Virus record (IMG/VR): IMGVR_UViG_3300005805_000042
Strand: one strand, 5' to 3'
Length of the DNA: 64,000 bases
DNA from: a virus
Made by a program: the position numbers and the translations under genes. A model generated the notes under the pieces. It had not been told where the DNA came from, did not search any database, and was given only the letters and a program-made list of their open reading frames with translations. Below, piece by piece: positions 7,826-8,025 of the stretch (positions are counted from its first letter, which is position 1; each line of letters begins with the position of its first letter).

Positions 7826-8025
7826 ATGGAAACCCCCCCTCTACGCTCACCGTAGTTTTAGATTTTACTGGGCATAATTTACTGTCCACCTGTTGACATG
7901 CACATCAGAGCAGGGTCCATCACAGAGTACCTTGGGTCATTTGTAACTTCTTTATGGTTGCGACCCATTTAAAGCCAAGGTTCCTTTCAACGGTGCTAAT
8001 CCGTCTTCTGTAAGGGGTTTTCCAT
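7826..8025 (-). ncRNA. unassigned 200-nt structured RNA candidate
   Basis: Terminal helix ATGGAAAACCCC/GGGGTTTCCAT; internal helices TTACAGA/TCTGTGA, ACCTTGG/CCAAGGT, ACGG/CCGT, CCTG/CAGG and CTACG/CGTAG; lies between tRNA genes. Confidence 0.65.

Follow-up and report, generated by a model that had tools for sequence, protein, structure and literature searches.

The virus record IMGVR_UViG_3300005805_000042 of IMG/VR, from which a stretch of 64,000 nucleotides (nt) was analysed at its full length (hereafter the window), raises the question of what is encoded in a spacer of about 200 nt within its transfer RNA (tRNA) array. The original prediction, made from the letters alone, described an unassigned multi-helix RNA and set two readings side by side, an independent phage noncoding RNA or a trans-acting specificity (S) domain for the minimal ribonuclease P (RNase P) RNA encoded nearby. 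The element is the full-length (~185-205 nt) form of freshwater-1, an orphan family catalogued by Rfam as a 62-nt core, and it is not an RNase P specificity domain. Here it is proposed, as the reading towards which the evidence leans, that it is a trans-acting structured phage RNA, freed by tRNA processing, which would associate with copies of itself.

The structured RNA is encoded on the minus strand, from position 8027 to position 7824 (~204 nt), and its two ends are mutually paired (Table 1). The Rfam scan of the 64-kb window, the first check suggested with the original prediction, gave a match to freshwater-1 (RF02979) at 7924-7863 on the minus strand that scored 74.3 bits (gathering score 72; E = 2.3e-15) and spanned all model positions (1-62 of 62). 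The label "unassigned" therefore does not hold for this portion, which matches at gathering level, and holds for the remainder. The Rfam model comprises a 10-nt unpaired leader (UGUGAUGGAC) and two hairpins (P4 and P5), which amount to the middle third only of the 200-nt element, and both hairpins, along with the conserved UGUGAUGGACCCUGCUCUG...CAACAGGUG, recur in the window copy. Beyond the model, real freshwater-1 members have a 5' domain of ~100 nt (P1, Px, P2, UGAAAG, and P3/P3a) and a 3' part of ~40 nt (P6 and P1'), and the 5' UGU of the leader, unpaired in the model, is one half of helix Px. Comparison of the homologues gives the real freshwater-1 RNA three times the size of its Rfam model. 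The motif is one of 224 from Weinberg et al. 2017 (PMC5737381), where it is not discussed in the main text, and no other full-text paper on it was found. An orphan 62-nt motif since 2017, freshwater-1 now becomes the core of a ~200-nt, tRNA-flanked, two-domain RNA, and the full-length definition supplies the right construct and boundaries for its study.

The core 19-mer is present in 49 IMG/VR contigs, and a looser core pattern added 14 further viral contigs and, among the matches listed, more than 100 metagenome contigs. Wherever the flanking DNA suffices, ~100 nt upstream and ~40 nt downstream of the core are conserved as well; no real core with sufficient DNA on its upstream side lacks the 5' domain (of 120 scan matches, 96 passed the filter), and further variants occur among the 21 that failed it. 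These contigs come from IMG/VR and from JGI lake metagenomes. No blastn match was found in 50,697 GenBank phage records, and among 185,579 species genomes the element is in only two contigs of metagenome-assembled genomes, labelled Micavibrio and Chitinophagaceae, which are too weak for a host call. The full-length freshwater-1 RNA is thus an RNA of uncultured, mostly freshwater (lake), large phages. The first of the two original readings, an independent phage noncoding RNA, is supported: the RNA is conserved and covarying, and over 100 contigs of uncultured phages and metagenomes carry it.

The evidence for the structure is comparative, because single-sequence folding is no better than that of shuffled sequences. 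The minus strand folds with -53.5 kcal/mol (z = -0.86), a value that 36 of 200 shuffles equalled, so that this fold is not beyond chance, and the plus strand (z = -1.76) is also no better than its shuffles. In an alignment of 42 distinct homologues made with MAFFT and fitted to no structure (A4, the source of all counts over 42 sequences), 97.2% of cells pair under the helix model, and 30 of the 45 helix pairs have changes on both sides. None of 500 shuffles attained the observed pairing or compensatory-pair values, and pairing falls to 32-45% when the 3' partners are slid by 1-3 columns. The lack of homologues or covariation had been named as grounds for giving up the predicted RNA; with ~100 distinct homologues and these compensatory pairs, both are present. 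Helix cells with G.U outnumber those with A.C (73 vs 13), which fixes the minus strand as the RNA strand, in agreement with the G-U preference noted originally. There are 55 invariant and 37 nearly invariant positions, and the invariant ones are mostly in junctions.

The terminal helix P1 (15-16 base pairs) has 15 pairs and one A.G mismatch or 1-nt bulge; the closing helix was correctly foreseen, and it is slightly longer than the 11-12 base pairs predicted. Seven internal helices are enclosed by P1, where at least five had been predicted. From the aligned homologues, the 5' domain is a three-way junction of Px, P2, and P3/P3a with a nearly invariant UGAAAG, and the 3' part consists of P4, P5, and an optional P6, which is absent from two members (L063 and L069). 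P2 pairs in 98.6% of cells and changes on both sides in four of its five pairs. The UGAAAG joining strand J2/3 has the rare variants UUAAAG and UGAAAU, and its UGAAA may form a single T-loop. One member (L080) carries an insertion of ~75 nt in P3a. A scan of the unpaired columns for pseudoknots returned one two-state pair only, between the P5 loop and J5/6 (U-A or G-C), which splits two subfamilies and is not claimed as a pairing.

In 41 distinct contexts, ARAGORN found upstream of the core a tRNA whose end lies 95-105 nt away. P1 starts from -2 to +2 nt relative to the 3' end of this tRNA, frequently right behind an encoded CCA. Where another tRNA follows, it is separated from the end of P1 by 2-7 nt. 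In the window, P1 starts 2 nt after one tRNA-like gene and ends 6 nt before another, which bears out the predicted placement between tRNA genes. The identity of the upstream tRNA is varied (Leu-UAA, Leu-UAG, Glu, Gly, Tyr, Ala, and Ile); about half of the loci have no downstream tRNA, and L063 has no upstream one. From the flush fit of the RNA in the spacer between tRNAs, its release by tRNA processing is expected. The RNA would be co-transcribed with the flanking tRNAs, its 5' side would be made by the 3' processing of the previous tRNA and its 3' side by the RNase P cut at the next one, and P1 would then clamp and protect both ends. Small stable non-tRNA RNAs that belong to phage tRNA transcription units, namely the species 1 and 2 RNAs of T4 (rnaC and rnaD) and RNA1 of T5, are released by tRNA-processing enzymes. 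Like rnaC and rnaD, the element is encoded in a tRNA array and is flush with tRNA ends, and it has no sequence similarity to the T4 and T5 stable RNAs (blastn, 50,697 GenBank phage records). As a separate observation, the downstream tRNA-Leu-like gene has perfect acceptor, D, and T arms, but its anticodon and variable region are replaced by the 69-nt insert, and the same chassis also adjoins a freshwater-1 element in several unrelated contigs (L045, L005, L034, and L080).

Two apical loops suggest what the freed RNA may do. The tetraloop of P4 occurs in the family as UGCA (most members), GGCC, GCGC, UCGA, GUAC, CGCG, and UGCG, all seven of them self-complementary, the last (one member) through G.U. 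In the alignment, loop positions 1 and 4 are U-A in 32 sequences and G-C in nine, and positions 2 and 3 are G-C in 40 and C-G in one, the single exception at each position pair being a misaligned row. About three quarters of the members carry UAAUUA or UAGCUA in the P3a loop; the central dinucleotide of this loop is GC in 23 aligned sequences, AU in 18, and another in one. A universal palindrome in P3a was considered and rejected, since the subtype of the window, (G/A)UCGCAA, pairs with itself with two C.A mismatches. The loops of P2, P5, and P6 served as internal controls and have no constraint for self-complementarity, and the P4 tetranucleotide has no consistent second copy within the RNA. 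Neighbouring nucleotides of a single chain are unable to pair with each other, and with no such second copy the covariation in the P4 and P3a loops points to another molecule. When two copies were folded together with RNAcofold, domain-swapped dimers always came out as favoured, a result of no diagnostic value, since every helix can equally be drawn between two molecules.

The mature RNA would accordingly be predicted to associate with itself through the P4 tetraloop and, in about three quarters of the members, also through the P3a loop, building either a symmetric homodimer or a homo-oligomer of more copies. Judging from the loop sequences, it is likely that the RNA forms a symmetric homodimer, or a larger assembly where both loops are palindromic. 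The dimerisation initiation site of HIV-1 is a hairpin with an apical palindrome whose alleles, GUGCAC or GCGCGC, each pair only with themselves, and the commonest apex of the element also reads GUGCAC. The HIV-1 site differs in belonging to a retroviral genomic RNA and in having a 9-nt loop and a packaging function, and the analogy is one of principle only. GOLLD, ROOL, and OLE are homo-oligomeric "ornate" RNAs (Kretsch et al. 2025, PMC12286853), and symmetric intermolecular kissing loops in OLE and GOLLD were inferred from palindrome-preserving covariation (GGCC/GAUC/AGCU and GC/CG; PMC12286853). The P4 and P3a loops (L4 and L3a) covary in the same way, and the element lies in a phage tRNA array much as GOLLD and ROOL are phage or prophage RNAs near tRNA islands. 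The element differs from all three in being 3-4 times smaller and in that its oligomerisation is only predicted; it has no Rfam match to any of them, and no family besides freshwater-1 matched. The self-complementary loops predict an RNA-only dimer or oligomer with rescue by loop swapping. This prediction links freshwater-1 to the recently discovered self-assembling phage RNAs, at a handy size.

The apical loops are exchanged as cassettes. Two pairs of members (L107 and L196, L159 and L047) are 98-100% identical elsewhere and differ in the P4-apex cassette by 8 substitutions within 10 nt, and in a third pair (L018 and L046) the difference is confined to the P3a loop. All combinations of the L4 and L3a alleles occur, with 21 switches on the tree for L4 and 14 for L3a. 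The cassette pattern suggests either recombination between invariant flanks or selection for distinct pairing specificities.

Several points weigh against a freed, self-associating RNA. With whole apex cassettes being swapped, the 21 and 14 switches do not count as separate mutations, and it is the seven P4 loop types that provide independent evidence. A loop of 4 nt is small for a kissing complex, and a strand-swapped extended duplex may form instead. The P3a loop of the window, GUCGCAA, is not a clean palindrome, which leaves the window copy with one self-complementary loop only, and palindromy could also serve a dimeric protein. Release by tRNA end-processing enzymes, for its part, is deduced from geometry only. 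Release by tRNA processing followed by self-association is the best-supported mechanism. A stronger form of it, in which the ~200-nt RNA self-assembles into symmetric homodimers or rings via both L4 and L3a, acting independently, and the alleles act as a self/non-self code, is tentative; the cassette-swapped loops would then, just as tentatively, keep the RNAs of co-infecting phages from mixing. Such an RNA would be, in miniature, a tractable equivalent of the assemblies formed by GOLLD and ROOL, RNAs of phage tRNA islands.

In the closest relative (G001/L055), the flanks are 98-99% identical, the same minimal RNase P RNA is present, and window position 8018 is joined directly to 7833 (blastn). 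Its empty site (L055 13715-13760) keeps the outer 8-10 nt of each P1 arm (AUGGAAAA-A-GUUUACAU), so that the same two tRNA-like genes are separated by AAAAUGGAAAAAGUUUACAUUUUAUUAU only, a remnant of the outer P1 arms. Two other relatives (L054 and L056) have kept the minimal RNase P RNA and have a deletion of window 7546-8028. In the more distant G002/L045 this site is occupied by the element, with the same P1, which makes loss in G001 simpler than gain. The close relatives without the element show that it is dispensable.

A monomeric RNA that binds a protein or a tRNA as a decoy or regulator, for instance a counter-defence RNA whose palindromic loops are read by a dimeric protein, is unlikely, and fares best among the explanations that do without self-association. 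Its presence or absence in near-identical phages is typical of accessory or anti-defence cargo, anticodon-less tRNA-like RNAs adjoin the element, and phage tRNA regions are described in PMC13096335 as anti-defence loci against tRNA-cleaving systems. However, the element has no tRNA-like arm, anticodon-like loop, or CCA end; Pfam and PHROGs searches of the neighbouring and large open reading frames (ORFs) returned auxiliary enzymes only and nothing useful on the neighbours, and no conserved neighbouring protein gene was found. The loop sequence is also free to change as long as self-complementarity is kept, which fits RNA-RNA pairing better than reading by a protein.

A cis-acting processing spacer, whose fold would present the flanking tRNA ends while the freed RNA is a by-product, is improbable. 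P1 could, for example, be a substrate of RNase P or RNase III, with the cleavage also creating the 3' end of the upstream tRNA. The tight fit of P1 to the tRNA ends, often after an encoded CCA, would be expected of such a spacer, as would the lack of specificity for the upstream tRNA. The ~55 invariant junction and loop positions and the constrained loop palindromes far exceed what a spacer needs, though, and no tRNA follows in about half of the loci or precedes in L063. In G001, moreover, these two tRNA-like genes still adjoin each other although the element is gone.

That the element is a selfish or mobile insertion, intron-like or a mini-element, which spreads between tRNA spacers and whose structure serves its own mobility, is very improbable. 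The clean presence or absence of the 184-nt block inside P1 between near-identical flanks could be taken for mobility, together with the occurrence of the element after many different tRNAs and the mosaic, cassette-like exchange of helices and loop alleles. Against this, the element has no ORF and no match to a ribozyme or intron family at E<=10, and its outer P1 arms differ per lineage and covary, with no conserved ends or target-site duplications. The shared site and P1 in the more distant G002 make loss in G001, e.g. by slippage across the stem base, the more parsimonious event.

The second of the original readings, a trans-acting S domain that would dock the tRNA elbow for an S-domain-poor RNase P RNA, started from a real RNA and a real likeness. 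The segment 9576-9343 on the minus strand is a genuine reduced RNase P RNA of 234 nt, which matches RF00010 end to end (35.9 bits, E = 6e-10), lies at the head of the tRNA array, and contains CR-I, CR-V, P1-P4, and the P15 region; it has 76 nt only where RF00010 has ~140 S-domain positions. Homologues of this minimal RNA were found in five other IMG/VR contigs and in none of the GenBank phages; in the copy of G002/L045, P3 is enlarged by an insertion of 49 nt. Both RNAs belong to one minus-strand tRNA island, and both also occur in G002/L045. The predicted string ACAGAAG-[ACGG AUUAGCA CCGU]-UGAAAGG is present at 8011-7983 on the minus strand, and it resembles the consensus of RF00010, which an E. 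coli control showed to be P11-ACAGAAAacAgA-P12-GUGAAAa-P13, in its order of J11/12, P12, and J12/13; at the level of the string, the UGAAAG after P2 would correspond to the J12/13 (G)UGAAA after P12. The likeness to the CR-II/P12/CR-III module is therefore real as a string, and the topology differs. The ACAG is helical, as it pairs with the CUGU just 3' of P3 in all 42 sequences; the fourth pair of this helix, Px, is G-C in 27 and U-A in 15, and the third pair, otherwise A-U, reads U-A in L073 and L080, two members unrelated to each other. The caution attached to the original prediction, that ACAGA can also pair with a downstream TCTGT, was well placed, and a base-paired ACAGA had itself been named there as grounds against the trans-domain idea; with two covarying pairs in Px the CR-II-like T-loop fails, because position 1 of a T-loop cannot also form a Watson-Crick pair with a distant base. 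The element has no second T-loop and no equivalents of P7-P11, P13, or P14, and region 7815-8035 has no match to RF00010 or its clan even at E<=10.

The distribution of the two RNAs also separates them. Four contigs with the minimal RNase P RNA (G001/G008, G006, G007, and G009) have no freshwater-1 match anywhere, in addition to the two kinds of clean deletion at the syntenic site. Conversely, BLAST detected a homologue of the minimal RNase P RNA in only one of the 46 contigs with the element, G002, with the caveat that many contigs are fragments and that very divergent RNase P RNAs could escape BLAST or a pattern; nine of the other 45 are rated at least 90% complete. A pattern search for the CR-I motif GAGGAAANTCNGGNC found it in 0 of the 46, a pattern that misses the G002 copy (its CR-I ends in A, not C), so that reliance is placed on BLAST and synteny. 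A genome search with RF00010 was set aside as a test of co-occurrence because it is insensitive and missed the G002/L045 copy with its P3 insertion. It follows from this distribution that most phages with freshwater-1 RNA must use the full RNase P of the host, and that phages with the minimal RNase P RNA do without freshwater-1. The paired ACAG, the lack of an RF00010 match, the clean deletions, and the missing co-distribution together led to the rejection of the S-domain partner, which is almost certainly wrong. Phage RNase P RNAs with a collapsed S domain do exist, but they work without freshwater-1 RNA, and the idea of a split RNase P is thereby removed.

Table 1. Positions of the full-length freshwater-1 RNA, its helices and joining strands, the flanking tRNA-like genes, and the block missing from the closest relative (window coordinates; pair counts from the 42-sequence alignment).
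Feature	Position	Strand	Basis or remark
Whole RNA, ~204 nt	7824..8027	-	End-to-end conservation in ~100 distinct homologues; covariation in all helices
P1 5' strand AAAUGGAAAACCCCUU	8012..8027	-	Both-side changes in 10/11 inner P1 pairs
P1 3' strand AGGGGGGGUUUCCAUUU	7824..7840	-	Pairs with 8027-8012
Px 5' strand ACAG, the supposed CR-II element	8008..8011	-	Pairs with 7925-7922 in 42/42
Px 3' strand CUGU	7922..7925	-	Overlaps first three bases of Rfam model
P2 hairpin, G.U + ACGG/CCGU, conserved 7-nt loop AUUAGCA (8000-7994)	7989..8005	-	Covariation
J2/3 UGAAAG, nearly invariant	7984..7989	-	Invariant in the alignment
P3, 7981-7975 with 7935-7929, encloses P3a and a conserved AUG-containing strand	7929..7981	-	3/7 pairs change on both sides
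P3a, loop GUCGCAA (7964-7958)	7950..7974	-	Consistent folds in 74 variants
Freshwater-1 core: linker + P4 + P5	7863..7924	-	RF02979 match
P4, invariant CCUG/CAGG, internal loop CUC/A, 5-bp inner stem, tetraloop UGCA (7902-7899)	7889..7914	-	
P5 hairpin UGGACA/UGCCCA, loop GUAAAUUA	7869..7888	-	5/6 pairs change on both sides
P6 hairpin CUACG-GUGAG-CGUAG, GNRA-like pentaloop	7841..7855	-	5/5 pairs change on both sides
Upstream tRNA-like gene with ~25-nt hairpin insert	8030..8127	-	RF00005, 33.7 bits
Downstream tRNA-Leu-like gene (GUCAGGUGGCGGAAUGGUAG...) with 69-nt insert	7690..7817	-	RF00005, 37.8 bits
184-nt block absent from closest relative G001/L055	7834..8017	-	blastn junction and empty site

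Other features were found in the window. Two tandem carbamoyltransferase genes (Carbam_trans_N/C) are encoded at 17496-20796 on the plus strand and a fused FkbM methyltransferase-glycosyltransferase at 12909-14372 on the minus strand; these are auxiliary sugar- or nucleoside-modifying genes, and other large ORFs have no family match. Within the tRNA array, an ORF of 162 amino acids (8453-8941, minus strand) has no Pfam or PHROGs match and is also present in L045, L054, L055, and L056. Between tRNA-Leu(UAG) and this ORF lies a second helix-closed RNA candidate of ~150 nt (8221-8370, minus strand); it matches nothing in Rfam, and parts of it have homologues in L053 (73-88% identity) and L045. 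Finally, the array includes a tRNA at 9191-9263 on the minus strand with an abnormal anticodon loop, UCUUAA, for which ARAGORN calls a 2-nt "anticodon" (ta) and, in its close relatives (L054 2833-2905 and L056 7819-7891), a 4-nt one (ctta); an odd decoding role, or a suppressor-like one, is possible.

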